64,000 bases of DNA from NCBI GenBank assembly GCA_963575745.1, contig CAUYUJ010000321.1, forward strand, positions 1 to 64,000, written 5' to 3'. Source of the stretch: Prorocentrum cordatum. Its lineage: Eukaryota. Position numbers and translations under genes: made by a program. The notes beneath the pieces are model-generated. The model had not been told where the DNA came from, searched no databases, and saw nothing but the letters and a program-made list of their open reading frames with translations. This document shows, piece after piece, positions 214 through 46,976 of this stretch (its first letter is position 1; each line of letters begins with the position of its first letter).

Positions 214-2639
214 CGGTAACCGCGCGCCTCTGGGGATTGCAAATTGGATCACGAGGCCAGCGTCGCAATTTTCTCGACTGAACCAAATTTGCTCGAGACG
301 AAATGTCCACGAAGGCTTCTATGTACGCGTTTCGGGAGGCCTCAGGACAGCCATATGGCACAAATGCAATGCTCCTCATCGCGTTCCTCTTCACACCCCC
401 TCGTCATTCCACTCCTCCTCGTCCTGCTTTTCCTTCTGCCCCCCCTCACATCCTCAGAATGATCACATTCGTCCTCATCCTCATCCTCGTCGTCGTCATC
501 TTCATCTTGCTCCTCCAATGTTCCAAGGCCGCCCGAGGACGGCGTCAAGGAAACCGAAAAAGCAGGAGGCAGGACGGCGTTGTGTCAACCGAAGACAGCC
601 ACAAAACAACCACGTGACAATGTGATGCCACAACAAACGTTGCTCAAACCGTCACTACATCATGACGCGTCGCATCGTTCGATGGGCACCCGTGCGCGGC
701 TTGCTGACAGGGCCCCCCAACAGCAAGCGCCGCATGTTAACGCATTCGTGTTCTAACTCCTGCTCCTCCTCCTTCTCCATCTCCCCAGAGGACACGAAGT
801 GTCACACATTACTGCCTACTCGTCGCCACCCAGAAAGCTGAGCTCGTACAATGGCGGGACTTGCCACAAGCAGCTGGATAACATCACAGCATCACCATAA
901 GGGCAAAATTAAATATTGTGGCGGACAACAACCACACCATCGCAAACAACCTGGTGTCTCCCCGCTTCCGGGACATCCAACGCTTTAATCCAGCGGGCAA
1001 TGCTTTCACTGGGGCGCACAGCATATCTGCCGACCCCCGCTTGCCAGGCGTGGGTGACAAGGCACGTGAGATGATTGGCTGCCTCCCTCCCCTGTCCCAG
1101 CCCGCTATGGTCCAGGATCAGGGCGTTAGGGTTAGGGTTCTAAGGTTAGGGCAGTAGCGGTAGGGTCTTTGGGTTCGGGTCTTGGGGACTTGTTCTGAGG
1201 GTTCGGATATTCCGACTGAGGTCTTACAAATCCGCAGATCTGGCGTGTGAGTTTCAAAGACCCTCAAATATAGCCTGAGCCTCAGTTATTGAGCTTCAGC
1301 TCTGCTGGGGGGGGGGCCGGGGGGGCTCTGCCAGGGTAGGGGGGGGGGAGGTCGAATCGACTTTGGTTGCAAAATCGGAGCTCCAGCTCACTCCAGGTCG
1401 GCCCCTCGCCCCGGAGAACTCGAACCCGGGCTCATAAAAAACCCAGCGGCCGCCCAGACGGCCCAAGAGGGCCTTGAGTGGCCGAAAGGTCGCCCCAAGA
1501 CGCTCAATATGTTCCTCAGACGGCTCCAGAAGCCTCCAACGTACCCTCCCGATACCTCCTAAGAGTGCCCAAAGACGGAACGTTTGCCCCACTCCTTTGT
1601 CTCGCGCGTGTTGCTCCGAACACTATCCGCCACCGTGCCCCCTGGCGCGTATGGCGCGCTCGAATGCTAAGTGATGTCTGGCGCGGTTTCTGTAAGCTCT
1701 AAGGGTTCCCCCTTCGTGGCGCGCATCGCCCGCTCTTCTCGAGGCTCCCTGGGCTCCCTCACGCCTGGCGCACACTCTCCAAGGCGTCCAAGATGCCTTT
1801 CATGACAGCCAAGGCAAGCCAAGAAGGCCTCTGAGATGGCCCAAGAGCGTTCAAAGACGGAACAAGATAGACCCAATATGACCCACGATGGCCTCAGGAC
1901 CGACCAAGAGGCCTGCAAGACGGCCCAAGGAGGTTCCCAAGAAAGTGGTGTTTGTCAATTGGTTTCCATTATGTTCGCATTGTGGTTTGTTTGAGTTTTC
2001 GTCGGCTCAAGACGACCCGGGAGGCTTTCAAGACGGCCTCGCGACGGTCCAAAAGGGTCCTTGGAAAGCCCAGGACGGACTCAGCAGGAGTGCCCTTAAG
2101 CTGCCCCTAAGGGCATCTGAGGACGCCAGTGGACGTAAGAGGACCCCGACGCCCAAGGAGACTCACGACGGCCCAAGGGAAACCCCAGGGTCTCCAAGAC
2201 TGCGCCTCGCGATCAAAGGACCACCATCTGATATCCATTGTGGTCCTGCAAAAGTGAAACGACGGTGTCACCTATGGTGGTGTTCCTCTTCGTTTTTGTC
2301 GTTGCCCTTCGCGTCCTCATCATCATCACCGCCATGATCGTCATCGACGTCCTCATGATCACCACGATCACCTTCATAACCACAACCACCACAACCATCA
2401 TCAGCAACATCATCAGCATCATCAAAATCCGCCGGCCCCCTTGTGGGGCCACCAGGCTGTAGGCGCGAGGTTCGCAGTTTCCTGTACCAGTCGTAGGTTG
2501 TAGTTTCCAGTGTTACAGTTCTGCTTCTTGCTGGTTACTGTAACTAGTTGATTGACCGCGCGAGGGGGGGGGAGGCCCAAACGGGATTTTTAGCACCCCC
2601 TGGGCGCGTTGTCTGAATTGCTGGAGGGGCTCGAAATCG

Positions 2640-3155
2640 ACACCCCTCACACAGATCCGCGGGGTCAGGGTCGAAAAACACATGGGATTTGCCACATTTC
2701 TGAAATTCGGTGCCACCCCTCACGCAGATCCGCGGGGTCAGGGTCCAAAAACACATGGGATTTGCCACATTTCTGAAATTCGGTGCCACCCCTCACGCAG
2801 ATCCGCGGGGTCAGGGTCCAAAAGCACAGGGGATTTGCCACATTTCTGAAAGTCGGTGCCACCCCTCACGCAGATCCGCGGGGTCAGGGTCCAAAAACAC
2901 ATAGGATTTGCCACATTTCTGAAATTCGGTGCCACCCCTCACGCAGATCCGCGGGGTCAGGGTCCAAAAACACATGGGATTTGCCACATTTCTGAAATTC
3001 GGTGCCACCCCGCACGCAGATCCGCGGGGTCAGGGTCCAAAAACACATGGGATTTGCCACATTTCTGAAATTCGGTGCCACCCCTCACGCAGATCCGCGA
3101 GGTCAGGGTCCAAAAACATACGGGATTTGCCATAATAAATGGGGGGGGGGGGGGT

Positions 3156-3193
<38 letters not shown>

Positions 3194-3360
3194 GGGGGAA
3201 AAATTGGGGTGGGGGGGGGGAGGGGGGGGGGGGGGGGGGTGGGGGGGGGGGGGTAAATTATCTGAAATCGGCGCCACCCCTCACGCAGATCCGCGGGGTC
3301 AGGGTCCAAAAACACATGGGATTTGCCACATTTCTGAAATTCGGTGCCACCCCTCACGCA
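2640..3360. repeat. 73-bp minisatellite, interrupted by a poly-G tract
   Basis: Unit cacccctcacgcagatccgcggggtcagggtccaaaaacacatgggatttgccacatttctgaaattcggtgc. The ORF track recurs every 73 nt. Confidence 0.95.
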
Positions 3361-3631
3361 CATCAATCGCAAGGCGTGGTAACCCAAACTGCGAGTACTC
3401 CCTCGGCCCTTTAATCCCATGGTGTGGTAACCAAGCTCGTAAACCATACACGTCTTACCAATCGCCCTGTGTGGTAACCCCTCTTGTGATCAGTTGGTTT
3501 TGCCGATTGCGAATCGGCCTCGCATGAATTTCCGATACTGCTGCACGACAGCGCCAAAGCCTCATGACTTAGCTCTTCCATGGCCCATTCTCCGAGAGAG
3601 GGGGCCGGCGGCAGGGGGCGAAGCCCTTACG

Positions 3632-3796
3632 GATCATCATCGTCGTCGTAATCCTTATCAGCATCAGCATCATCATGAGCATCCTCATCACCATCATCAT
3701 CGTCATCAACATCACCATCACCATCACCATCATCATCATCATCATCCTCATCATCATCCTCATCATCATCATCATCTTCATCATCATTATCATCAC

Positions 3797-3859
<63 letters not shown>

Positions 3860-3860
3860 G
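3632..3860. repeat. (CAT)n microsatellite
   Basis: Direct observation. A shorter version lies at ~11358-11465. Confidence 0.95.
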
Positions 3861-4539
3861 TTGTTCATCCAACCGATTCCGCCACAATCCCCTTCTCCTC
3901 CTCATCATCCTCATCTTCTCCCCGTCATCTTCCTGATCCCCTCATGGTGGTCTTACTCACGACCATCATCCGCGGAACCCAAACCAGAATGATCATCATG
4001 ATAATCAGTATCATCATCATCATCACCAGCATCACCATCGCCAACATGGCAATCATGCTGACGATGATGCTGGGAGCAACTGCCGCCGACAATGCTGGGC
4101 TAGCACGGTGGCGGGACTTGCCGCAGGCACCTGAATAGCTGCGACGAGATGATGGCATCCTCCATTGCTCAGCTGTCTTTCGTGCTATGTATGAAAACGT
4201 CAAATATGGCCCGATATGATCCACGATAATCTTCGTCAGGCCCCTATGTGGCCCCCGGAGACGGCGCAATGAGGCCAAGCAAAACTCACAATGTCTTACA
4301 GAGGCCACTACGCAACCCCAAAACAGAACAATGTGTCCACGAAGGCTCAGCTGGAAAGAACACAAACCAAACCCAAAAGTAAATATGCAAACAAATTTAG
4401 TTCCGATAAGTATGCTATGTATGTAGAACCTGTGTGAAACGCACTGTTTGTTGTAGGATTCCCAATACATGAACGCGTACGAAAACGTAGGTCGACAAGC
4501 CGCGGGTGCCTGCTGGAGCCCCGTCGCGCCTTCCCCTTG

Positions 4540-4770
4540 TCTTAAGGTCAGGGTCTCAGGTTTAGGATTTGATGGCTATGGTCTTAGGGCTAGGGGGTCT
4601 TAGGGGGTGTGTATTAGAAATGGGGTCTGCGGGCTAGGGCAAACGGGTTATAGTTGCAGGTTTAGGGTATGAGGCGTATGGCCGTAGGATTAGCACATGA
4701 GGGCTGGGGCTTCCGGGCTAGGGCATTCGGCTTGGAGTTCTAGGGCTAGGGCCTTCGGGTTGGGGTCTGC
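4540..4770 (+). repeat. Degenerate telomere-like (TAGGG-rich) tract
   Basis: Repeated tttagg/ttaggg/ctaggg words. A shorter tract lies at ~1123-1165 and ~9191-9233. Confidence 0.45.
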
Positions 4771-5694
4771 ATCATCATCGCCATCATCAACAGGATCATT
4801 GTGATCACCATGAACAACCATCAGCACAATGACCAGCATACTCATCAATCATCAACATCGCTATCATCATCATCATTCGCCCAGCCGTCACCAGAGTCAT
4901 CATCAGCACCATAATCATATTTACCACGATAGACATCATCACTACCATCATCAGAGGCAGCATGACCGCTACCACCACCAACATCATCACCATCACCAGC
5001 ATAATCATCCGCATCCTCATCATCACAATCAACATCATCATCATCAGCATCACCATCATCGTCACGGTCGCCACATTTACAACCAGCACCCTCAGCATCA
5101 TTTTCAGCGTCATCCCGTACCAGGGCATGTGTGCGGCTCGCACGCGCTTAAACTATCTTAAATGCGCGTTGCATGCTGGCGGGCATGGCATTGGTAGAAT
5201 GAAGAAGATGGAGAGGATCAGGAGGGAGCGGAGAGGAAACGGGGGGTAAGGACAATAACGAGGGGCAAAGGATGAGGAGCAGCAGGCAATGAGACAAACA
5301 ATGAACCAGCCAGCCCAGACAAAAGTCCTCGCGTGGGCCTCACGCGGGCTGCAACAGCGCAGCTGCGCAACAGCAAGTTCGCGGCTCGCGGCGCTTTCAA
5401 AGTCAAAATTAAAACCCAGAACTGGTTCGAAGCTTCGAGCCTCGAAAAGGACTCGCTGGATCCTCCCCCCCCCGTCGCCCTCCCCACAGATCTCAAGCAA
5501 AATTGGAAGGCAACATGGGAAGCGGCCGTTGGAACGCAGAAGACACTGGGCAGCAGGAGCGGACTCTCCAGTCAGAACAGAACTCTGTCCAGCTCGAACT
5601 ATAATCCCATGGTCAAGTACTAGATGGCCGCCCCATACGCAGGGGTCATGACCCCCCCCAAGCTCTGCCACATAATTATCTCTGCGCCCCAGCC

Positions 5695-25701: not shown

Positions 25702-28700
25702 TTTTTTTGACACGGCCATGACTGACACAACGTTGGTGCCAGTAAAAGAACCTCTGGCGGTGACTGAGCGGGACGGGCCGCACGGACACGGAAGGCGCCA
25801 GAGGTCAGTCGGAGTCACCAGACTCCACGGCGCTTACACGAGCAGCTTGCAAGGGAGCCTCGTCCTCCTCTTGGTGAATAGGCGTGCACTCACGCCTCGA
25901 CTGCTCTCGCTCGGACGCCACACCCTCTTCGTGGGGAATGGCGCCCTGCTCTGCAGGTGGCCCTTCTTGTGGGGCAAAAAGAGAAAGACCTTCGAGATGG
26001 CCCGCAGCTCTGATGGTACCAGACGACGACGACAGGTCGACGACATGATCTCTCTGATTGGCACACTCAAGAAGGGGCTCCACAACTGGAGCCTGCTCGG
26101 CAAAATGCCTTGTACGATGGACCTCTTGGTCCCCAGCAGCAGCGACGATGGCCGACGACGAAGACGACTGGTCGACGACAGTATCGTGCTGCTGGGGATC
26201 CTCGCCCACCGCCTGCAGGTCCTCTGGAGACGCCTCAATCACGACTCCGTCGATCTTGGGATGGCGTCCATTGAGCACTCGATACTTCCAACGCTCGAGA
26301 TTGTTCCTCGTTGGGGCCCTGCAAACCTTAGCTAGCAGCGCTAGGGGTCCCAACGTAGATATAGCGTTGCACCTAACACAAATGAACAGCTGAGATCGAT
26401 CGCTGCGATCGAAACTCAAAAACATGTGGCCTCTGGCGGCCACCTGTAAGAACGGCTCAGGCACCTTCCCCGTGCAACCTCCAGTTGACGGCGCATCGCT
26501 TTCACCGAAAACGAAGACAGGGCTGGGCCGACGTATCCTGAGGCATACAGCACACCTCCAGTATGACCTATGCCATTCCCATTCGTGCTCAAAAGTCTCG
26601 GGGCCCGCGGGCTTCTGGCGGGGCTCTCTGGGGTTCAAGTGGACTCCTGTGAGATCCAGGGCGGGCCACTTCGGCAGCAAACGGGCCGCCAGCCTACAAA
26701 CCGCACGAGAAACCTTGACTTTCCTGTCAACTTCATCAAGCTCAGCCTTGGAGCCTGTGGGGTGGGCGAGCAGTCCTTGACGTGCGGCACGATCCGCGTC
26801 ATCCCCGAATTTCTCCCAGCGTTGCTGGGCAGTTAAATCAGGACTGTCGGCCACATGCGCTTTTACTTTCCTAAGGGCAGACAGGCCGCACGATTGGGCA
26901 AATAACATGGTGCCCGAATACATTTTCTTATATGAGAACCTGGCCTCCGGAGGAAACGCGAAGGTGCTGACCACATTCGCGCAATCCGAAAAACCTTCCG
27001 AGGGGCCTCCTAGGTTCTGTGGGACCATGGCGAGGGCCGCAAACTCTCCAGCTTGGGGGGTCTGGGGGAGCGGAGCCCAAATAGGCCCACACACCGAGCA
27101 GGTCTCCTGAGCGTCCTGGGTGACCTGTACATAGCCCCAAGTGGCCCTACTCAGCTCCTTGATAGGGTGTCTGGTACAGGACCCGTCCATGAAGATATAT
27201 CCCTTAACCTGGCCAGGATCTACGACGTCTTCTGTTCCTTCGGGCGCGTGAGTGATAATACCTCCTTGCTGTCGTGGGCGTGGTAGCACATCTCCAGGGT
27301 GTTCAAACAGCCCCTTAGAGAAAAGCAGTGTTTCCTTAGCGTCCGATCGATCGATACTTCTAGCCTGGGTGATCAAACCGCCATCGTCGACCAAAACCCT
27401 CCTATCATCGTCGACCGCACTGCACTCCCACAGACGGTGGAAGACCGTGTCACGCGCTCCGCAGCCTAAAGGACACTGAGCAAATGGCAGAGCGCACCCC
27501 AAGTCGAGCGCACGCTCGTTGGTCCACACCGCTCCGCACACCAGCGACTTGATACAACCCTTCTCGTAGTATGTATACCGTGACGAACGAAGCTGTGACG
27601 ACACCACATCATAACACACTCGACAAGGTACATTGTGAACTTTACCTGCCTCCCTTTCGAGCTGTCTCAAAACTCCATCGTGCAACATCTGTTTTATGAG
27701 CGCTGGGGAACATGACGTTAAAATGATGTCTTCTCCGAAATCGTTGACCATGACGCAGAAACTCTTCATGTCCCATTGGACCCTGAGGAGGCTGAGGCGG
27801 AGCGCTGAGAGGGGACCCGTGACCTTCTTCCAGACGAGTTCTTCTTTGGGGACCCCGTAAGCCGACTCCCAAGCTTCCCTCAAAACTCCGAACGACAAGG
27901 TGTTAGGCGAGGATCTAACTTGGTTCGAGAAGACCTCCTTAGCGTAGCGCACCACTGGTGCCACTGATCCATACCACGATGGATCCCCGTGCAACAACAA
28001 CAGAGAGGTGAGGGACCTCATGCCTGCAGACGGCCGTAAGATAGAGCCCACAGCACGCCGAGCAGCCGCCAACTCGTGATCAGACTGGCCGTGCACTTCA
28101 GCTCCATAAGACAGGCCTGCTAGAGGTCCACTCGTGAAAATACTTGGGCAGTGCTTGCCCAGCACCTGGTTGACTCTCTTGAAACGTTTCGTTCTCTTCT
28201 TGAAAACAGCTGCTCTCTTCTGCTGCTTCTGTCCTCGTCCCTTTCTCCTCCTGCTCTTCCCTGCCGTATCATCGATTCCCAAAATCACTGCAGACTCCAC
28301 GTACGAGGCTCCACCGTACTCTCCTAGAGCTTGCCTGATGGCTTCTCCAGTCTTGTGTGATGAACATATGACCGACGCTTTGTCCTGGGCAACTTGTACG
28401 CACATCTCCTCAGTGAGTCCACAGAAGCTCTCGCCGCGGCTGCTCGACGCGTGGGCTCGCTGCGACTGCCGAGACAGAAAAGGCGGGGAGCCCGCCAGGG
28501 TGTGCCCCGGGCGGTCCAGAGGCTTCCGTCGAGCGGGTTACGGATACAGTCGGGGCGTTGACCTCCTCCTCCTCCTCCTCCTCCTCCTCCTCCTCACCTC
28601 CTCCTCCTCCTCCTCCTCCTCCTCCTCCTCCTCCTCCCATCGCAGTAAGCTGACGCAAGTCCGTCCCCCCGAGCTCGAACGGCCACAGTAGTCAGTCTCC

Positions 28701-35657: not shown

Positions 35658-37803
35658 TTATTTGGGGTTCGCGTCTATCATGTGGCTCGGTTGGTCATAG
35701 AAGCGGGCCCATATGCTGCTTCCTGGGGCGTGGGCTGCTGCTCTTAGGATAGCTGGATCGACTCGTAGAAATTCTCGTTCGGCTTCGGAGTTCGGGGTGA
35801 GGAGGCCCTTCCACGATTCGTTTGATCGGGCCCAGGCCCCCCAGAAGGTCTCGGCGCCACTGATGTCCCTGAAGAGGTTCAAGTCCCGAGCGAACTGATG
35901 GGCCCATGGGTTCGCTTTAGCTTCTAACCTCCCGTGTTCATCTAGCGTCGGGGGCTCGCTCGGGATACGTCCCAAGATAGCGACCAGGAGTTTGTCGGTG
36001 TGCAACACGGTGACGACACATCGACCGCAAACATTTAACTCGTCTGACCGCAAGCTCTGCTCTTACTGGGAGTATCTTCCAATGCTTAAGAACCTCGACG
36101 TTACTCATGGCGGTCATGCGTGAGTCCGCGCGTACCGTCTTAGCTCTGCCTTGCGCAAGGGCACAGGAGTATTTTACCGAATGGGAGCCCAGCTTTTTTT
36201 CTTCGGTTTTCGTCAAAACGAACGCTTCGAGCCCTGAAACTCAAGCCTCCAGCACCTTCCCCAAGAAAATGTCTCGTCTGGGCTCCCAGAGCCCTCTGTC
36301 ATCCCAGAACTTCCCAAGTTGACACCATCCCACTGTCATAGACCGAATACGGATCGAGACCTCTAACTGATTGCTGGCCGTCATCGTGTATCTAGCTCCC
36401 AAGCGTCGCGCATCTGGAACTACCTGTCCCTGGGAAGAGGGGCGTATTTCCTGGAGCTTCCGATTCTCGATATGCGGTCCGAGAGCTGGGACGATGTCCT
36501 CGTTTGATTTACTCTGTGCAAAATGCCAGCGTTTGAATATATAATCGAACTGCTTGTCGCCCGATTGAATCATCCCCATTGCATCCTCGGCCTTGCCTGG
36601 CGGGCATAGTCGCTTCTTCAGTAGATCACCCGCGAGGCCCGAGAGGGATGCGTCCTGGTGAAATCCCTCGATCCCGTCATACATGACTATGGGGTCCTGT
36701 GTAATAGTTCGCCAGTCTGAGATACAATCACGATAAACTCCAGTGAACTGCTTCGGCGCCTCGCTTGAACCTTGTGGGCCTCCGTTGCGCTGTAGAAAAG
36801 CTTCCTCTTTGTCGCCCCCTGGGGTGAGTACTATGCTGTTCACCAATCTCTGATGTGCTAGAGCGCGTAAGTCTTCTCGAACGAGCTGGTGCGAAATACA
36901 AAGAAGACCTCCTGTGCGAGGGCGAAGACATGCGTTGGAAAGGTCGTGTAGCCAATTGGCGTGGTGCTGCTTCTGCCGTCTAAGTGACCACCCAGTGCGT
37001 CTCTGAACCAAGATTGCCCCCTCACGTCGTCGATGTGGTAGAAATCCGTGCCAGTGACTTGGCATAGCGTTTGTCCATGCTTCCCTTTTGTCCCCCCAGC
37101 CGTCGGGCACGCCATGGAAACTCTTCCATATCGCGTCGGAGAGGTGAATGATGCGCTGACTATCCACCCTGTGCTTCTGATTCCGCTTGTCGAGAAGGAC
37201 GCCCTCCGTCATGCTGCTCTTCGTCGGTCGCTGATTGGCCCGCAAGCAGTGCACCAAGACCTCCACGAAGAGTGATCGAGCCTTTGTATACGCCAATGCA
37301 GCTTCCATGACGTTCTGGCGTCCGTCTCTTGCGCGGCCTCACTCATTCTCAGGCTGGGGGGTGCGTTCTGACCGCCAGTTTGGGGCCTCGCCACCTGTTG
37401 ACCCGCTGGGCCTGTTAGCGCGGTGGTCGAAACTGTCCAAGGACTGGCCATGGGGCTGGGCATTCCCGAGACTTCCCCGCCTAAGTCCAGCAAACTTCCT
37501 CGGCGATTGGCGGAAGCCGAAACCTGAGTAGGATACAGAGACTCCTCCCATTGTAGGTCGTCGTGGTCTGCGAGGGGGTCGTCATCCATGTCGAAGAATT
37601 CGAAAGGGCCCGCCTCCGGGTCGCCCAGGTTTGTCCGAGCTCGGCCCTGGGGATCTTGAGAGATATCCATCTGATCTGAAGTAGCCTCCACAAAGCTGGC
37701 GTCAATACTGGGCGCCGCTGCCGCGTTTACTGCAATAGCTGTGTCTTCCACTCCTGTAGCTCTGACAAAGTGCATCGGGGGTAGTCTGACATCTGGTCGG
37801 CGT

Positions 37804-37842
<39 letters not shown>

Positions 37843-40798
37843 AGAGTCGGCACCCGCTGCCGCCCAGCGCCCAGGGGGGCTGAGGCGGCGCGCTGCGCGT
37901 GCTCTCGGGTGCTAAAAGACTCATGCCTTCAGCCTCCTCAGGAGGCTCACCATATCCCACTCCGCCCTGCGCTGTCAAGTGACTTGGAGAGACATGTGGG
38001 GCCCAGGCTCATCAGCGCGATCTCGACGGGGACGCTCCATTTAGTTGTGTTTCTGCGTTTCTTCGCATTGCGTAGGCGATAAAGGAGCTGTTGGAGTAGA
38101 ACGCCCGCTGCCACTTCCATCGTACTGTTGCGCATTTTGCGAAAATCGTCCGCCTGAGGTGCCAAAAACTCGTTAATCTCCTTTTGCAAGTCAACCCGCG
38201 TTGCCTCCACGCCTCCGCCTGGTCCTGGTTGAGCGATATGTGTTTGCAGTTCTGGTAGAGAAGGTTTGTAGCTTGGTAAATGACAATATTTTCTGCGTTT
38301 AACTCCCATTGCTTTCCCCGCCAACTGTCGTGCAATACGACGCACATCAGCTGCGTGCCCTAGTCTTCTGGATTCCACCAGGTCCCCGTAGAGATGCTTG
38401 CGGCATGCTGCGTGCACACGTCTTGCAGCACGACGTATATGATACGCAAGGCTGCGGATCTCCACTTCCAGGTAATCCAGGTATTATTTGTGTCATCCTT
38501 GAACTAGTCCGTGATCCTGCCGCTGGTGGGCAAGATGATCTCGGTACTTCCGTCGTTCGTGGAGTTGCTCGAGCCCAACGTCACGCCATTGTTTTACTTC
38601 TGCATATGCTGATGAGCGGGCAACACGCACCCATACTCATAAGGAAGCCCGAGCGAGGAGGACGGACGAGAGGTGAACCGATGAATGGAGCACAAGAGCG
38701 GTCAGGAAGGATTGCGCACTCGGGGATTGCAGGAGGACGGAGGGCGGAGAAGGCGACGGGGGAGAGTTAGGGACAGGCGAAGCGAAAAGAAGATCCGAAG
38801 GCGGGCGATCGGGCGAGGGGGATAGGGGAGCAGAGAGGGACAGCGGGATACCTAGAGAGGGTGGGAGGGACAGGAAGACCGTTTTGCGCGCAATCGGAAG
38901 GCTGGTTGCCCGCCTCGTTCCGCCCCCCCCCCACCCGCGCCACCCCCCGCCGACCTGGCGAGCGGGGGCGTCGCAGCGGGGGGCAAGGGCCAACCGCCGC
39001 AAGTAGCGAATCGCGGGGCCCCGATTTGCAAATTTTGGGGCTGGAAATTCCAAGGGCCTATGGGTGCGCGTTGTCGGATGGGGCCCCCGCCCGAGAAACG
39101 GCGCGCCTCGGCGTCCGACAACGCGCGCCCATACCCATAGGACATCCTCAAATCCGGAGTCGCGAATCAGCAAATTCCGAGGTCGCCCTCCAGCCCACCG
39201 CCGACCCTCTCCGGCTCGCTGGGTCGGCGCGGGCGCGCCACGACCTGAGGAAAGGCGTGGAGAAGAAGGCGGCTCGCCATCCGACCACGCGCCAGACCCC
39301 GCCCCCATGTCCTTTCTATTCCGTCCCTCGCCATCCCGCTGCCGCCCTCCCGGCATCCCAGCTCACCCCACGCGAGCGCCCCCCTTCGCATCATCTTCTC
39401 ACTGCACCCTGTCCCTGATTCTCTATTGTCGTCTTCCTGGCCCTCCGTCTTCCACGCATCCCCGACTGCATCATCCTTCCACTCCCCGTTCGTTTTCCTT
39501 TTTCCTCTTTGCCCCATCCCTTGCCCTCCTCCCTCGGGACCCCCCTATGGGTATGTGTGTGTGTTGTTCGTTCATGATGCATGATCTGGTCGACTGCCTC
39601 GTTCGCCAAAATGGCCCCGGGCTGTCTCGAGCAGGGTTGTTGCCCACAGGTCGTTATCATAATCCGCGTGGGCCAACTCTGAGTACTCCGCTAGCTGATT
39701 CGTTATGCTTGCCATTCGGTTATATAGAGCGCGGTGAAAATCGAGTCGACCCACGCCGCTCTGAAGTGCTTGTGCCATCTTCGTATAATCCCAGCGAGGA
39801 CGTGGTTTGTGATGAACATACGTTGGCATCACGTAGTCGATGGTAAAAAATAAGGGTAGGTGGTCTCGAGGTTTTGAGTCTGGAATCATTTGCAACTGCC
39901 GTCCTCGCTGCCAGGCTACCGTACACGTTTGCACTCCATCTAGCAGGTTTGTCGGGATAATGGCCACGTCGATCGTGCTGGTCTCGCCGTTCATGCCAAA
40001 GTAGGTTGGCCCTGCCGATGGGTGATAAGTGCTCAAACCAGCCATGTCGTAAGAGAAAAGAATATCATGTAGTCGTTGTCCTGCTTGTCCGCTTTTCTTC
40101 AAGTGATAAGTTCCAAAATTGCATTCATCTGGGTCGCACTTGGTGTCCGAAGTCTGCCCCAATCCAAATCCTGAAGTAATATCAAATCCTCAAATTGGCG
40201 TGCATCGTGAGGGCGCGCTCGAAATACGCTGTTGAATGTAGCACATCGTCATACTGATGCTCTTCATCTGCGCCTTCATCGCGGCGCCCGTCTCGCACAA
40301 GGGTGGAGGGTAGCCCGATATCGCCATTATGTCGAAAGACCCCGATCTGATCCGTACATCTCCTGCTCGTCCCTCCAATCCCTTTGGCCCAGGCTGAATT
40401 GCTACGATATGTTGCCGTCTGAGCCGTCGTCCCATCACGATGCACGTGCCCGCGCAATTCGTCACATATGGTGGCCGCTTCCACCCAAAATGAATCGCTG
40501 CCCGTCGCTCAGGTATGTTCTGCACATGATAAACTCTATCCTGCCACTCTCGGACCCTCGTGCCATTCAGTATCAGCAGATCAACGCCCATCACCTTTGC
40601 GATCTCCTCTAGGCGGGAAGTCTGAATAAGAGACAATGGGTTGTAAACCGCCCCTCGTAAGAGAAACCTCATTGACCCCCTCCACGGCTTGCATTCACTC
40701 GTCGGGGGCGGGTGGGGGGTAGCGGGAAGGCGCGAGTGTCTACGGGGCCTTCTGAACGCTGCCTGCTGCTTCGCTTGGGCCGAGGTGGCAGCTTGGCA
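35658..40798 (-). mobile_element. Degenerate non-LTR retrotransposon (LINE B): EEP endonuclease plus RT, with two insertions
   Basis: EN motifs AVYNPLSL, GRAG, SGYPPP, PTYFG, STIDVAII, RDHLPL. RT motifs QRIIHL, WHGFLPHRRREGAIL, HDLSNA, GGPQGS, LAGD (decayed xADD), RRLGA. Many stops and frameshifts. Confidence 0.85.
38613..39574. mobile_element. Non-autonomous TIR DNA element, ~32-bp TIRs, 3-bp TSD (TGA), inserted in LINE B ORF2
   Basis: TGAGCGGGCAACACGCACCCATACTCATAAGG versus reverse complement TGAACGAACAACACACACACATACCCATAGGG. TGA on both sides. Removal restores the frame ...PDHAS|AYAEVKQW... Confidence 0.9.
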
Positions 40799-40899
40799 AT
40801 GATAGCGATGATGATGATGACGACGACGACGATGATGATGATGACGACAATGATGACGATGATGATGATGATGATGATGATTTTTGAAGCCCGCGCACC

Positions 40900-43800
40900 C
40901 CCGGTGGCGACCCCATTGTTTCTCAGTTCCGTCCAGGCCTTGCAAATGGCAGCGCGCCGTCTCGAATGGAGCCTCAGGCGCGCGCGAAGCGCCTGCTCCA
41001 CATCGGCACTGCTGCCAGTTCGCACTGGCGAGTGCGCGCGAACAAAAGCATCGCAGCAGCTTGCGTATCTGAGCATTGCAGAGGGAGAAGGGGCGAGGGA
41101 GGAGGTGAGGATCAATTCCGAGAACCATTCATCATCACCAGGAGCATGGAAAGGACCCAGATGGGATATACAGAGAGCACGGAGCCGCTGACAGATAGAA
41201 TCGTGCTTAAGATCGCCATAATCAACACCTGCAGGGGCATCACAGCCGAAGACACAGCCTCTAGGGGCACAGTGGAATCTGGAGGTCGCGCAAATACCCC
41301 GACACGAAATACGAAGGACAACACTCCCAAGATACGCCTGTGATTTCTTAATGACAGAGCGGATCCTCTGGATCAGGAGAGCAACCGTGCCGGGGGAAAT
41401 CCCAGGACGCCACGCCTGAAGACGTCTCAGTAAACCGGTTTCGGGGCAGTCCTTGAGGGCGACGGGCAGGGAAAAGCGAAGCTTACGATAAAAGTAACGC
41501 TGAATACTCTTGCTGTTAATGTCCTGCGGCAACGAAGCCTACATGTCGGCATAAATTGTCGCCGTCTGCTGGAAAGCCATCAAGAGACTCCTCTGCCACC
41601 ATCCCCCCCTTCCCCTTGCAAAAATCATCTCGCCCCCCTCCCTCGCTTGCTTGAGGTGCTCGAGCGACGACTGCAGCACAGAGCACTTGGCGAGCAAACG
41701 TAACTGACAAGCGTGACCAATACTCTGCAGGCAGGGAAACTCGATGCTGCTGCCGAGCGCACGCAATCCAGTGAGCATGCGCTAAGAGAAACTGAACCGC
41801 GGGGCGGCGTTCAGCAACTGCATCGCACGGTCATGACTGGCAAGCAGAGCAGGTGAGGGAGGATAACATTGCAGGGTAAATTGGAGCTTGGAGAGGCAGA
41901 GCGACTGGTATGATGAAATAGACACTGGAAGACCAAAGCCCTGCTGTCGAACTGCACGATATCGCCCAACAAAGGCTGGAATAACTTCATCCCAAGCATA
42001 GTTTGCAGCCTCAGGGCCTATATGGATGCCTAAGTACTAACAGTGTTTCACGATGCACAGGAGCGAGAAGGGTTCCCGAGGTCTTTGCACACGCGTTGGA
42101 GCCACGTCACTTTCGCATCACCAACGAGGAGGATAACACACATCTTAAGATTAAGTTTCAAGCCGACAGCCTCCTCCAATAGGGTAATAAGCTGAGGAAG
42201 AGTAGGAAGATCAGAGAGGACATTGTTGAGCATAAAGAGCCAGTCGTCAGCATAGGCTAACATACGATGCACGAAACGACCACCGCGCCAGACAAGCCAA
42301 CGGGTTATGGGGTCAGTCGCCAGGGCGAATAAAACCATTGAGGCAGGGCCCCCTTGCCGAACACCACGCTGGATCAGTATTTTAGTTAGCCTCCTCCCCC
42401 CAAGGGTAATCCACGCCGAATTGACATCATGCAGGCGACTGAACAACGAGATTACTTCACGTGGGATATCGAGACGGGATAGCACCATGAGAACCCAATG
42501 TACAAAGATCGAGGGGAACGCGGCCGAGAAGTCAGTGAGGAATTCGGCCGCATGCTTCTGCCCAGTGCCCCACATCTCCAGCCCCCACGCCTTCGCCTCC
42601 ACAATGTTAGCTAACATGTCCCCCCCCTCTGATCCCTCCCTTCTGACGCTCATGTACGGCGGCGGCCGCCACTTCATTCGGCGGCTGAGCGAAGGCGAGC
42701 GGCAGGGCTTTGCAATCCGTGTCGGAGAGAGCAAGCGGTCCGGTACAGTCGGCTGCGCGAAATGCACCAGCAGCCGCGTCATTCGGGCTCGTGCCCTTTG
42801 GAAGAAATACGAGCAACATCTCCTGCATGCTAGACGGCATGGTGGTGCTGAAAGAGTCGTGCATAGATTCAAATACATCATAGAGTATGTCAAAGGCATC
42901 ACTATCCTGCCAACATGAATATGGTATGCCGTCTGGACCAGGAGCAGCGTTGCGTCGTGCAAGTAAATATTGTGAAAGCTAGGCCTGGTTAAGAACCGAG
43001 TAGGCGTAATCCCAAGATCCTGAACAGGCGGAACAAACCCAAGAATTTCAGCCCAAAGCTCACGATCAACAGGAGTGGCCTTGAAGACCTCAGACCAATG
43101 GTCCGCCAGGACCTTTCCAGACGCCTCCAGGGACCCACAGGGGGAACCATCAGGATCCAGGACCCCAACAAGGTAAACTCGACGACGAAGTTTAGACCAG
43201 AGTTCACGTTTCCGACAAAATCGTTCAATATGATGCTGGGTTCAAGCTTCTTCCGAAATATCTTCAGCTACGCAGGCTTCCAGCCCGTGGAGCCCATCGT
43301 CAATCGCAGCCTGCTGCAGCAAACGCTCGCGCTCAAACAACTGCGGGAGGTCGCTACAGGCCTCGGTTTCGACGTCAAAGAAGGGGAGGAGGGCAGCATA
43401 AGTACGGAGGGCGGTAATGCACATATGAAACTTGTGATAACGTAGACCACGGAGCGCATGCATGGTCCAGTAATGTTTTCCCCATGAGTGCGCGCAGGAC
43501 GATGTTTGATACGTATGCGAGCGGGCTTAACTTGTTCATGACATATACATTTAGCAGCAGCATGACGTTTAAAGGGGCCCCACTCAGCAGGGATCCCCAT
43601 GAGATGCTGGCGGGCGAGGGCACGATACTCGGGTGAGCGCGCAATAACATTCGGGATGACACGCGAGCCTTCCCATGGAACGTGACGCTGGAAGGTGGCC
43701 ACGAGCGGGCGATGATCGGATGGTGTCTTGCCTCCAAGTGAGCCCCAGACTTTGGCCTGTGTGGTGAGGTCCTGCAACATGGCACTGGGCATGTCTGAGT

Positions 43801-44668
43801 ACAACCGATCAAGCCGCGAGGAGTGCGTCTGCCTGGCGTTGTTCCACTCTTGCCGAGTGGGTCCATCCTGCACAAATTCTATCCAGCTGCCGCAGAGCTG
43901 GTTAAACGCGTCGTGATGCAATCGATCACCACTGTGCCATGTACGACCGTCATATCCCATCCTTCCTTCCTCTTCTAAGGCGAAATTCCAGTCCCCCCCC
44001 CCGATCAAGTTGAAAGAGACAGTGGCCGGCGGCAGGGCAGCTAAAATGGCGGACAGGATGCGGCGATAGAGCGGAGTGCCATCACTTGTGTTGGGCATAT
44101 GACAATTGACGATACACATCATACCATGCTCACCAATGCAGCGAGAGAGGACACGACCAGGGATGATAGGAACATGACGAATGGACTGGAAGTGAAAACA
44201 AAACTGCTCATGAAGGACAGTGAGGACACCACCAGTGTTGGCTTCCGCACGCGAAGAAATACATACGCTGCTCCCACGAAGCTGACACTTGATCTCCTCT
44301 GCATCCCCAAGGTGCCCATGGGTCTCCTGAGCGCACACAATACTGTAGCGTTTAGCTAGAGACAAGAGTTGTGAACATCGACGCGAAGCTCGACCATCCC
44401 CACCTCCCACAGCCGCAAATAAACCTTGAGTGTTCCATGTTACGTAAGATATCGCAGTACTCGGTAAGAACGGAGACGGAGTAGCCGACAACGAAGACGT
44501 CGAGGAGTCGAAGGAGGAGGAGGAGGAGGACGAAGACGAATTGCTAGAGCTACCCGAATTCGAAGAGGAAGAGCTAGAGCTACTCGAATTGGAACTGCTA
44601 CTATGTTGCGTGCTGCCAGGGCCGTCTCTAGACACCTCAAAAGGGACGGCGGGCGGCGACCTTGGCAA
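40900..44668 (-). pseudogene. LINE A ORF2: APE endonuclease, reverse transcriptase, Cys/His knuckle (frameshifted)
   Basis: EN motifs VTWNTQGL, CAQETH, GGDWNF, SRLDRLY, SDHRPL. RT motifs VFLPKG, PLALSDTDCK, DFSAAFPSI, GVRQGGPAS, YADD (42243-42254), GLKLNLK, YLGIHIG. Knuckle CVFGC...KHDSIC. Confidence 0.9.
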
Positions 44669-45626
44669 CCTGAATCAGTGCATCGGCGTGAGCCTCAAGG
44701 CCAAACTCAGGAAAAGCGGCCTCCTCCAGGTCCACGAGGATGTCTTCGCTGACGTCACTGGCAGCGAGGTGGGCGATTCGCGCGGGGTCCTCGGCCGACC
44801 TGAGGATGAAAACGTCGCCGCCGAGGCCGTTCTATCCTACCTGGAGCTGCGTGCTGGCCAAGAGCGTCTCCGCCTTGTTGCGGAGCTTGCCCATGGCGGG
44901 GAACAGGCGCCTGCTCTTCAAATCAAGATCGCACCGAAGTTTGAGATGAAGCGGCTGTCCGCCGCGAGGGTCCACGAAAGTCGTACCCTGATCGAAATTA
45001 GATAAGAAATTAGTGGCTGTGAGAGCGTCACCGAACTCAAAGACAGCTTTGCGATTCATGTCGAAAGCCTTGGCGATGCACTTGTTGTGGTCCGCTATGG
45101 GCATGGCCTGGTTGCGCACCTGCTCCGCGGCACGCCAAAGTGTGGAGGCCATCATCGGTCTTGGGAAGCCCAGCAGCACAAGCCTACATGCACCTTCCTG
45201 TTGATTGCGACTGCGAGAGGCCGGTGCCCACACCGATGAGCTGGCTGTGGTCGAACGGGTTGATTCGGGACTGCGCAGCCGACGACGAGAGCCTGGTGGG
45301 TACTCAGCAGCAGGCGGGCGTTCAGAAAGCTTTTTCAGCGACTCCCCGATGTTCGCGACCGTGTTCTCGAGCTTGATGACTCGATCAGCACGTTGTGATA
45401 ACCCTGTCGCACCTCGCATGCTGGAGTCCGTGTCTTCTTCGAGGGCGTCGAGACGTGCTTCTAGGATGTCCATGCGAGCTGCTGTGGCATTGACGTCTTC
45501 ACGCAATGAGGTAATGCCGCCTCGCATCTCCTCACCCAGCGATGGCATGCGGGCCTCGACGTTCGTCATGGCCACGATGAGCGAGGCGGCCCATGGTGGG
45601 GTGCCCTCGGTGGCCATGGCGGCCAT
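44637..45626 (-). CDS. LINE A ORF1 (coiled coil plus RRM-like), one in-frame stop at 44832
   Basis: Heptads LREDVNATAARMDILEARLDALEE and RVIKLENTVANIGESLKKL, then RLVLLGFPRP...AVFEFGD. The frame continues past the TAG to TGA at 44637-44639. Confidence 0.75.
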
Positions 45627-45781
45627 GGGGCGGCTGTGTGATGGGCGAAGGCCTGGACGGAAGGATGCCGAGCCGCAAAAGCGGGCGCAGTGTGCACCTC
45701 CAAGCAGCTCGTGCCTGAATGCTGTGGAGTCGCCAAGACTAATCAGGTTGCCTCGCAACTTCGTTGCTTCCCCCGTTTAGT

Positions 45782-45802
45782 CTTGAGCCAAATGGCTACG
45801 GC
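45782..45802 (-). other. Genomic copy of dinoflagellate spliced leader (DinoSL)
   Basis: The minus strand reads GCCGTAGCCATTTGGCTCAAG versus consensus DCCGTAGCCATTTTGGCTCAAG (one T fewer). Confidence 0.95.
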
Positions 45803-45859
<57 letters not shown>

Positions 45860-46976
45860 CGACAGGAGGAGTGGGTGACGGGTTCCTGCGCGGGGTGTCC
45901 AAAGAAAACAAGAACCCACCTTAAAATGTGGGGAAACACACTACCACCAATTGCCCAATTGATGTACGTCGCTATCGTAGCGAAGCGCGTAGAATGCGGA
46001 AAATAAACAAGATACTGGCACAGTTCCGTTCCGGACCTCTCCATGGCGCCTGGTCAACAGGATTCCGAGGCGAATCCAGCCGTCGCAGCGAGGACCACCT
46101 AGAATGCCCAACAAAACGCGAAATCGAGGGCGGGCAATCAGCATTGGTATGTTAATTCCCCCTGAGAGAAGGCATGCGGTCAGGCCGCAGAACGTGAGAA
46201 GAGACGCGACAAGCAGGCGATTCCGTGACAGCCACGGACTAGTGTTTCGGGTCACTTCGTTTTTCCTCCTCCTCCTCCTCCTCCTCCTCCTCTTTCATAG
46301 CCTCTCCCTCCCTGCTGCGTCGTGCTCGCTGCCGAAATGCGCTGCCTCTGCGTTCTCGCCATTCCATGAATTCTGCTGGCCCGGGAGGGATCCGATGGGG
46401 GGGTGGCGATTGGGCACGGCAAGGAAGGGAGTGGAGAAACCAAAAGATACCGATACCGCTGCTCCCTGGACTTCCCCCGGGGCGCGTTCGGACCAAGATT
46501 TCAGAGCGACTCCAGCGGTGGCGACGAGGGCCTCCCGGGAAGCCCAGAGAGGGGAAAGCGGGCGGGGGGGGGCAGAGGTACGGGCGCCTCCTCCTCCTCC
46601 GAGGGAGGTGGGGCCGAGCGGCTGCGGCGAGGGGGCAGGGCAGGGACCGGGGGGGGGGGGGCGAGCGGCCGCGGCGAGGAGGGGCGGAGGGCCGAGCGGC
46701 CGCAGCAGGGAGGCGGGGGCGGGAAGGGGGGGCGGGCGAGCGGCCGCGGCGAGGGCGGGAGGAGGGCCGAGCGCCCGGCGCGCCGCCCGCGCGCCGCGGG
46801 GAGCTGCCGTGCGCCGGGGTGGGGGGGGGGCGGGGCACGCACGGCGTGGCTTTCCGCCGCGCGGGGGGGGGGGGCGGCGGGGGGGGGGGGAGAGCGGGGG
46901 CGGCGGCGCCGGCAGGGGAGGAAGGCAGGATCTGGACAGAGGCAGAATCGAGTCAAGATCGGACCGATTGAAATCG

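Follow-up and report, generated by a model that had tools for sequence, protein, structure and literature searches.

Retrogenes that carry relics of the dinoflagellate spliced leader (DinoSL) were reportedly described in dinoflagellates by Slamovits and Keeling in 2008. The DinoSL is trans-spliced onto the nuclear mRNAs of dinoflagellates and is retained by retroposed cDNAs (PMC5585692, PMC7245778, PMC6050394, PMC12014239; here and below, citations refer to the accessible parts of the articles). In this study we describe a spliced leader (SL) at the start of a long interspersed nuclear element (LINE) in a 64-kb stretch of DNA (contig CAUYUJ010000321.1, positions 1 to 64,000), and this whole stretch is called the window hereafter. 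Like the DinoSL-relic retrogenes (PMC5585692, PMC6050394, PMC12014239), the locus contains a retroposed cDNA whose 5' end is a DNA-encoded SL. Unlike in those retrogenes, the copied RNA appears to have been a retrotransposon's own mRNA, in cis, with a first open reading frame (ORF1), a second one (ORF2) for an apurinic/apyrimidinic endonuclease (APE) and a reverse transcriptase (RT), and an A-tail.

The source of the RT that made dinoflagellate retrogenes is treated as unknown by Song et al. 2017 (PMC5585692), where SL-relic genes show an enrichment of the Gene Ontology term 'RNA-dependent DNA replication' and the accessible text leaves LINE 5' ends undescribed, and a 2018 review prefers Ty1/copia as the RT source (PMC6050394). 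Six transposable elements that contain an SL were presented from Schistosoma mansoni by Boroni et al. 2018, tentatively as trans-spliced and retro-transcribed (PMC5832876). These cases share with the window a genome-encoded SL exon fused to a transposable element, but they belong to another phylum with another SL, come without junction anatomy in the accessible text, and are allowed by their authors to be assembly chimeras (PMC5832876), whereas the insertion boundaries of the elements treated here are visible in the form of an interrupted microsatellite, a target-site duplication (TSD) in the metagenomic locus L189, and A-tails. The trypanosomatid elements L1Tc and ingi are, like the window element, APE-type LINEs in hosts with SL-trans-spliced mRNAs, but they use the internal promoter Pr77 and have unspliced transcripts without an SL, which is the opposite way to set a 5' end (PMC1874656).

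SymbioLINE-Dnmt and other LINEs of Symbiodinium resemble the window element in having two ORFs, with Exo_endo_phos and RVT_1 in ORF2 (de Mendoza et al. 2018, PMC5890265). TSDs, conserved 5' untranslated regions (UTRs) and an absence of poly-A tails are reported for these LINEs, and the accessible text of the article has no mention of the terms for the spliced leader (PMC5890265). Unlike that of SymbioLINE-Dnmt, ORF1 of the window element is not a DNMT. The site-specific retrotransposons SLACS, CZAR and CRE of trypanosomatids lie in SL RNA genes and have split SL target DNA on both sides. They are likewise LINEs beside SL sequence, but the window element contains the complete SL within its inserted unit and has a CAT microsatellite as its target. 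We found no description of dinoflagellate LINEs that begin with the DinoSL in the literature, supplements and subscription journals being outside the search.

Spliced leaders at the 5' ends of LINEs

Direct reading of the minus strand revealed a 4.9-kb retrotransposon without long terminal repeats (non-LTR), running from 45802 to 40881/2. The minus-strand order at its 5' boundary is CATCATCA, followed by G and CCGTAGCCATTTGGCTCAAG (45802-45782) and then by ACTAAACGGGGG, where CCGTAGCCATTTGGCTCAAG after the G is the 20-mer core of the DinoSL minus one T of its TTTT run. With up to 3 mismatches allowed, this 20-mer matches once in the window, compared with 0.01 expected from shuffled sequences, and the canonical DinoSL 21-mer with TTTT has none at the same tolerance because the missing T is an indel. 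Scans of the window with a 15-mer and a 10-mer stayed at chance level, and no second SL-like piece stood out. Direct reading shows that the LINE UTR follows the SL immediately, without any SL-intron sequence in between. The SL is sense-oriented, forms the extreme 5' end of the retroposed unit and is joined straight to the transcript body, which is the arrangement that defines a DinoSL retrocopy.

Both ends of the element are flanked by (CAT)n, as seen with Tandem Repeats Finder (TRF) and by flank comparison; the upstream repeat ends in TCATCA, the downstream repeat resumes as (A)TCATCATC, and one microsatellite is interrupted by the element. Since the same microsatellite is found on both sides, the SL belongs to the insert and starts at its first base. 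The inserted unit consists of the G-SL (21 nt), a 155-nt UTR, ORF1, ORF2 (APE and RT), a 3' UTR and A4-5. The element ends with GGGCTTCAAAAA and an A-run at 40885-40881, and where exactly it stops is uncertain by one base (A4 or A5); the last A may belong to the microsatellite.

A preliminary description of this DNA had placed 21 of the 22 nt of the DinoSL at the 5' terminus of a LINE, followed by about 155 nt of UTR, ORF1 and an APE-RT ORF2, and had seen a single SL without stacked relics. All of this is borne out in the window, where G plus CCGTAGCCATTTGGCTCAAG is unique and the distance from the end of the SL to the ATG at 45626 is 155 nt. Two further details need amendment: the A5 tail stands as a short A-run of which one base may belong to the microsatellite, and the microsatellite noted just outside the SL, (CAT)19 at 45859-45803, is also present beyond the 3' end (40881-40807). 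The features of the locus, all on the minus strand, are as follows.

45803..45859, minus strand: 5' flank, perfect (CAT)19 (TGA on the plus strand), target DNA (TRF, direct reading)
45782..45802, minus strand: DNA copy of the DinoSL, G plus CCGTAGCCATTTGGCTCAAG, one T missing, start of the inserted unit (direct reading, mismatch scan)
45627..45781, minus strand: 5' UTR, 155 nt, beginning with ACTAAACGGGGG, without a further SL relic and without a long ORF (direct reading, Rfam)
44832..45626, minus strand: ORF1, intact, 264 aa plus stop, ATG at 45626 (ORF reading, Pfam, protein searches)
43271..44674, minus strand: N-terminal open frame of ORF2, a Ser-rich stretch followed by the APE domain and a linker (hhalign, tblastn, motifs)
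42051..42978, minus strand: RT region in two reading frames, with a frame change near the G-run at ~42620 (Pfam, PDB, tblastn)
40886..42050, minus strand: C-terminal region of ORF2 and 3' UTR, with one frame change and three in-frame stops (homology to the C-terminal third of intact relatives)
40881..40885, minus strand: short A-run (A4-5) closing the element (direct reading, flank comparison)
40807..40880, minus strand: 3' flank, continued (CAT)n, 25 units, 88% matches (TRF, which called the repeat at 40881-40807; flank comparison)

SL sequences were also found at LINEs from metagenomes, samples unrelated to the window. A metagenome scan with an alignment of twelve full-length ORF2 relatives (A1) gave 598 stretches, of which 327 were confirmed, and the SL survey covered the best 80 of the 327 confirmed LINE loci (L121-L200, 394,167 bases, all 160 locus-strands). 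Strong SL matches were obtained in two of the 80 loci, with local scores of 19 and 17 compared with 12 or less on the other 158 locus-strands. In both loci, designated L124 and L189, the SL has the sense orientation of the LINE and precedes the ATG of ORF1 by 85-115 nt. Among the other loci that retain an upstream ORF no SL was seen; only about 10 of the 78 SL-less loci retain more than 1.2 kb upstream of ORF2.

The 5' end of L189 reads CCAT, then the TSD ACAAAAAAACTACCAC(T), then (T)CCCGTATCCATTTTGGCTCAAG CATGCTCAAG, and its 3' end reads GTGAAAA followed by the TSD copy ACAAAAAAACGACCAC(T). This target-site duplication of 16/17 nt indicates that the L189 insert begins with the SL. The ATG of ORF1 is at 2253 in this locus, and ORF2 is degenerate, with an RT that is 41.6% identical to that of L124 over 89 aa. 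L124 shows, from 9 bases inside the contig end, the order CTCAAG CCATTTTGGCTCAAG TTTGGCTCAAG CTCAAG CACTTTCAAG CTCAAG CACAAG. Its ORF1 (115-1068, 317 aa) and its ORF2 (1129-4794, 1221 aa; Exo_endo_phos at 2e-12, RVT_1 at 1e-25) are both intact and are followed by an A13 tail, and the closest of its named relatives, with 44% across 32% of the query, is from Prorocentrum cordatum.

Across L124 and L189, the stacked relics measure 15, 11, 10 and 6 nt, with the series 15, 11 and 6 nt in L124. According to the accessible accounts of DinoSL-relic retrogenes, similarly stacked and shortened relics (CCATTTTGGCTCAAG, CTCAAG) arise there after repeated cycles. The relic stack in front of the intact ORFs of L124 shows what appears to be a LINE lineage after several SL cycles, in which new SLs were joined inside an earlier relic. 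Because the relics of L124 and L189 are stacked, re-splicing in those lineages would have taken place inside the relic and not at the last AG. The piece CATGCTCAAG adjoins SL material in both L124 (1-70) and L189 (2139-2148). This recurring relic type may mark a preferred non-AG splice point within the leader; TG has been suggested as an acceptor in a 2025 survey (PMC12014239).

Coding regions and family of the element

We then considered the body of the window element. At E up to 1, no HDV-like (hepatitis delta virus) ribozyme or other Rfam family was found in 40500-46300, apart from a sub-threshold snoRNA-like match inside the microsatellite. The N-terminal part of ORF1 is coiled-coil-like, with weak coiled-coil-type Pfam matches below the cutoff. 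ORF1 matched no named Pfam family and no named look-alike in the ESM Atlas, where the best score was 0.89. In ORF2 the catalytic motifs of the APE are legible (WN, QET, GDWNF, SRLDR and SDH), and the APE region matched the ORF2 N-terminus of profile A2, which was made from intact LINE ORF2 proteins and whose first member has Exo_endo_phos at 2e-12, with an hhalign probability of 96.9% (E 1.7e-10, 321 columns). The same region had no match to Pfam alone even at E 10 and showed a faint likeness to a plant APE in the PDB (E 0.28). The RT region corresponds to the Pfam family RVT_1 (E 1.3e-9, above the curated cutoff), and its best PDB matches are the RTs of R2 and of human LINE-1 ORF2p (E 4.7e-8 to 9.4e-6).

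Intact ORF2 relatives (1059-1242 aa) span the element from residue 4 to about residue 1125, corresponding to 44452 to 40948 (tblastn). Since they align along the whole element, the window copy is neither 5'- nor 3'-truncated. The ORF2 frame has decayed, however, with four frame changes and four in-frame stops, so that the term full-length in the preliminary description is correct for the extent of the element and not for its reading frame. Runs of 8-9 G are found in ORF2 at ~42619-42627 and 43996-44004; the first coincides with a frame change, and at the second one related contig of the DNA run X1 lacks 3 bases. Some of the ORF2 indels, and also TTT in place of TTTT in the SL, may come from long-read homopolymer errors, whereas the in-frame stops are substitutions. 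The window copy is a dead though structurally complete L1-like LINE of the two-ORF type with APE and RT.

Of the words sampled, 27% occur in run X1 and hardly any in two sister runs. Short contigs of X1 fall on the element in 73 cases at 80-100% identity (9 with at least 99%, 8 with 95-99%, 20 with 90-95% and 36 with less than 90%), and these graded identities indicate a diverged multicopy family. A contig of 39 nt from X3 covers 45763-45801 with 6 differences and is uninformative, and no second copy of the element is present in the window. The protein searches gave a single relative of ORF1 among 5.8 billion clustered proteins, namely P0001, a 172-aa fragment with 94% identity. For the RT, 1581 relatives were obtained at E up to 0.001 (HMMER, 1.84 billion representatives), with P0002 at the top (84% identity), and no relatives of the APE region were found among proteins of 257-819 aa, the length range searched. 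P0001 and P0002 likewise speak for further copies of the family. A scan of the IMG/VR viral contigs with profile A2 gave no relative, and the junction 17-mer GGCTCAAGACTAAACGG had one chance match in these contigs, in AT-rich DNA without an SL upstream.

Origin of the SL-headed copy

Based on the sequence observations above, we suggest, with a probability of roughly 0.8, that the window copy arose when a LINE mRNA with an SL-trans-spliced 5' end underwent target-primed reverse transcription. The LINE mRNA is taken to have been trans-spliced because nuclear mRNAs receive the DinoSL and retroposed cDNAs retain it. The LINE transcript would be handled as dinoflagellate mRNAs are in general, with an acceptor immediately before ACTAAACGG receiving the capped 22-nt SL exon. 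The RT of the element would then copy the RNA to its capped end, so that the new DNA copy bears the SL, and target-primed reverse transcription would insert the SL-headed cDNA. With the 5' end provided by the host, the element would need no start-site-defining promoter or ribozyme of its own, and any transcript reading into it could give a full-length LINE mRNA with a cap. Subsequent cycles would join a further SL at the relic encoded in the DNA, or within it, leading to stacked relics as in L124 and L189, while the window copy would display one cycle and the decay since. The earlier claim that the LINE RNA was SL-trans-spliced and fully reverse-transcribed is thus supported by the position of the SL as the first sequence of a microsatellite-bounded unit and by the same layout in L124 and L189.

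Several observations weigh against this explanation. Cover by X1 contigs is sparse at 45489-45815, with a depth of 0.3-1.6 that leaves the 5' ~330 nt almost bare, and no second copy of the window family is seen with its 5' end among these contigs. In the microsatellite target no distinct TSD stands out, lengths of 3k+1 nt up to ~22 all fitting, and the SL of the window is one T short of the canonical one, for which mutation, RT slippage or a homopolymer assembly error are possible causes. In the metagenome survey an SL was not seen in 78 of the 80 loci, a figure that comes from loci whose host organisms are not identified and that is not a rate. Finally, the relatives P0001 (94%), P0002 (84%) and P0005 (40%) bear the EukProt label Pyramimonas sp. 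CCMP1952, a green alga, and the next named relative after the proteins with this label is from Prorocentrum cordatum, at 34% identity. The Pyramimonas label could reflect contamination, mislabelling or the source of the window itself. From the SL sequence, with the Prorocentrum cordatum relative at 34% pointing the same way, the host may be taken to be a dinoflagellate or another user of the same SL.

The SL could also have come to this place in other ways. If a host transcript containing a LINE had received the leader at an acceptor of the host and had then been retroposed in trans, the SL would mark a host exon boundary; SL-bearing host mRNAs are indeed commonly retroposed in dinoflagellates (PMC5585692, PMC12014239), and the 155-nt UTR belongs to no known family. 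However, the SL is just 155 nt from ORF1, the unit closes with the LINE's own 3' end and A-run, and a similar SL distance of 85-115 nt before ORF1 is found in two other LINEs, which makes such a passive retrocopy improbable. The fact that SL sequence abuts the LINE end would also be expected from a site-specific insertion into an SL RNA gene in the manner of SLACS, CZAR and CRE, where the SL is target DNA. In the window, the same (CAT)n stands outside the SL and beyond the A-run, SL-gene sequence is on neither flank, SL-intron sequence follows neither junction, and the SL is complete and unsplit. Because the (CAT)n flanks place the SL inside the insert, this origin is excluded, and we give it a negligible weight. 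An artefact was considered in three forms, namely a chance match, a chimeric assembly join at the microsatellite, and an RT template switch onto free SL RNA. Template-switch chimeras of the U6/L1 type occur in mammals, the junction adjoins a repeat, and read support at 45654-45815 is thin. On the other hand, chance is excluded by the single match against 0.01 expected, the microsatellite resumes past the A-run as for a real insertion, a template switch to SL RNA would carry a part of the intron that is absent here, and the architecture recurs in L189 with a TSD; an artefact of any of these kinds is thus highly improbable.

A different possibility concerns what the DNA-encoded SL does after insertion. 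It might be a functional 5' module whose terminal AG serves as the acceptor on read-through transcripts, so that an identical capped end is made in each generation without a promoter and relics stay unstacked. The window copy, in which a single complete SL stands without any relic after it, has the appearance expected from such reuse, but a first-generation copy of an SL-less master would leave the same trace. The relic series of 15, 11 and 6 nt in L124, of which zero length is conceivable as the end, and the short CTCAAG relics that are reported as common in the 2025 survey (PMC12014239) are also compatible with it, whereas the stacking of relics in L124 and L189 indicates that last-AG splicing is not the rule. 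We consider reuse of the terminal AG unlikely. The two modes of splicing would differ in their products: if the terminal AG were reused, the SL would join ACTAAACGG directly in transcripts of SL-bearing loci, and if an internal AG of the encoded SL were used, the transcript would consist of the SL, CCATTTGGCTCAAG and ACTAAACGG.

Retroposition of a trans-spliced LINE mRNA, if true, means that LINE machinery copies SL-capped RNA to its end and inserts it by target-primed reverse transcription, the latter being indicated by the A-tail, the TSD of L189 and the interrupted microsatellite. This would be a third means of setting the 5' end of a LINE, in addition to internal promoters and ribozymes. 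The SL, together with its stacked relics, would then form a built-in counter of retrotransposition generations, and the use of acceptor sites could be read from genomes alone. An SL-headed LINE is a combination of two known kinds, the LINE and the DinoSL-tagged retrocopy, and it is expected in hindsight while tying LINE machinery to SL-capped templates. Since all nuclear mRNAs in these organisms are trans-spliced, the finding is neat rather than astonishing.

As a tentative extension, dinoflagellate L1-like LINEs as a class might lack a start-site promoter of their own, read-through or polycistronic transcription and host SL trans-splicing giving an exact capped 5' end in each generation. The SL relic of each copy might then be the next acceptor and perhaps a T-rich core promoter, and these LINEs might be the source of the RT and endonuclease for thousands of SL-relic retrogenes. 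With the RT source of these retrogenes being unknown or placed with Ty1/copia in the accessible literature (PMC6050394, PMC5585692), an SL-headed LINE, if rightly read, would point to LINEs as that source.

Other observations in the window and in viral contigs

Besides the LINE, two minus-strand ORFs lie directly 3' of the microsatellite (39575-40675) and appear by eye to be halves of an endonuclease domain (DLLILNGTRV; RDHLPLFFTIDY), and an ORF at 36244-37338 has RT-like motifs. Pfam gave no family for these ORFs, and the LINE ORF2 relatives gave no tblastn match there. If real, the ORFs of this region would represent a different, older retroelement in the same orientation as the LINE. Just before this possible second element, the degenerate GCCACCTCGGCCCAAG (40789-40774, minus strand) shares 12 of 16 bases with the 3' part of the SL, GCCATTTTGGCTCAAG, the 4 differences being all T to C; this similarity is at chance level and not significant. 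A 910-aa open frame on the minus strand (25808-28537) contains an RNase H-like stretch (MDGSC...EFAALAM...KVKAHV) and Cys/His clusters, matches no Pfam family and may be part of another mobile element. No host genes were recognised in the window, with 0 Pfam families above the cutoff in 25 other ORFs.

The exact DinoSL 21-mer was also found in IMG/VR viral contigs, in 119 stretches (L002-L120) with 143 distinct sites, mostly on AT-rich contigs of giant-virus bins ('GVMAG'), for example L014, L025, L054, L072 and L082. A conserved AT-rich box, TTTTTATTTTTAAATATAAATTTTA or TTTTACTAAACCA, often precedes these sites. The ATG of an ORF of at least 100 aa follows the DinoSL at 106 of 129 sites, at a median distance of 49 nt, compared with 12 of 122 in a shifted control, and many of these ORFs encode DUF4116 repeat proteins. 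From the contig sequences, this looks like viruses, or AT-rich dinoflagellate-related DNA, encoding the host leader at gene starts, for which we found no description in the literature at viral genes. No relative of the window LINE is present within 6.5 kb downstream of any of the 143 sites. In one of the stretches, L068 (IMGVR_UViG_3300008016_000003), the SL is at the contig end and is directly followed by a 759-aa ORF on the minus strand (2929-5205) that matches the viral domain RdRP_1 (E 4.5e-7), and this arrangement resembles the endogenous RNA-virus elements described in dinoflagellates in the accessible part of PMC10235124.

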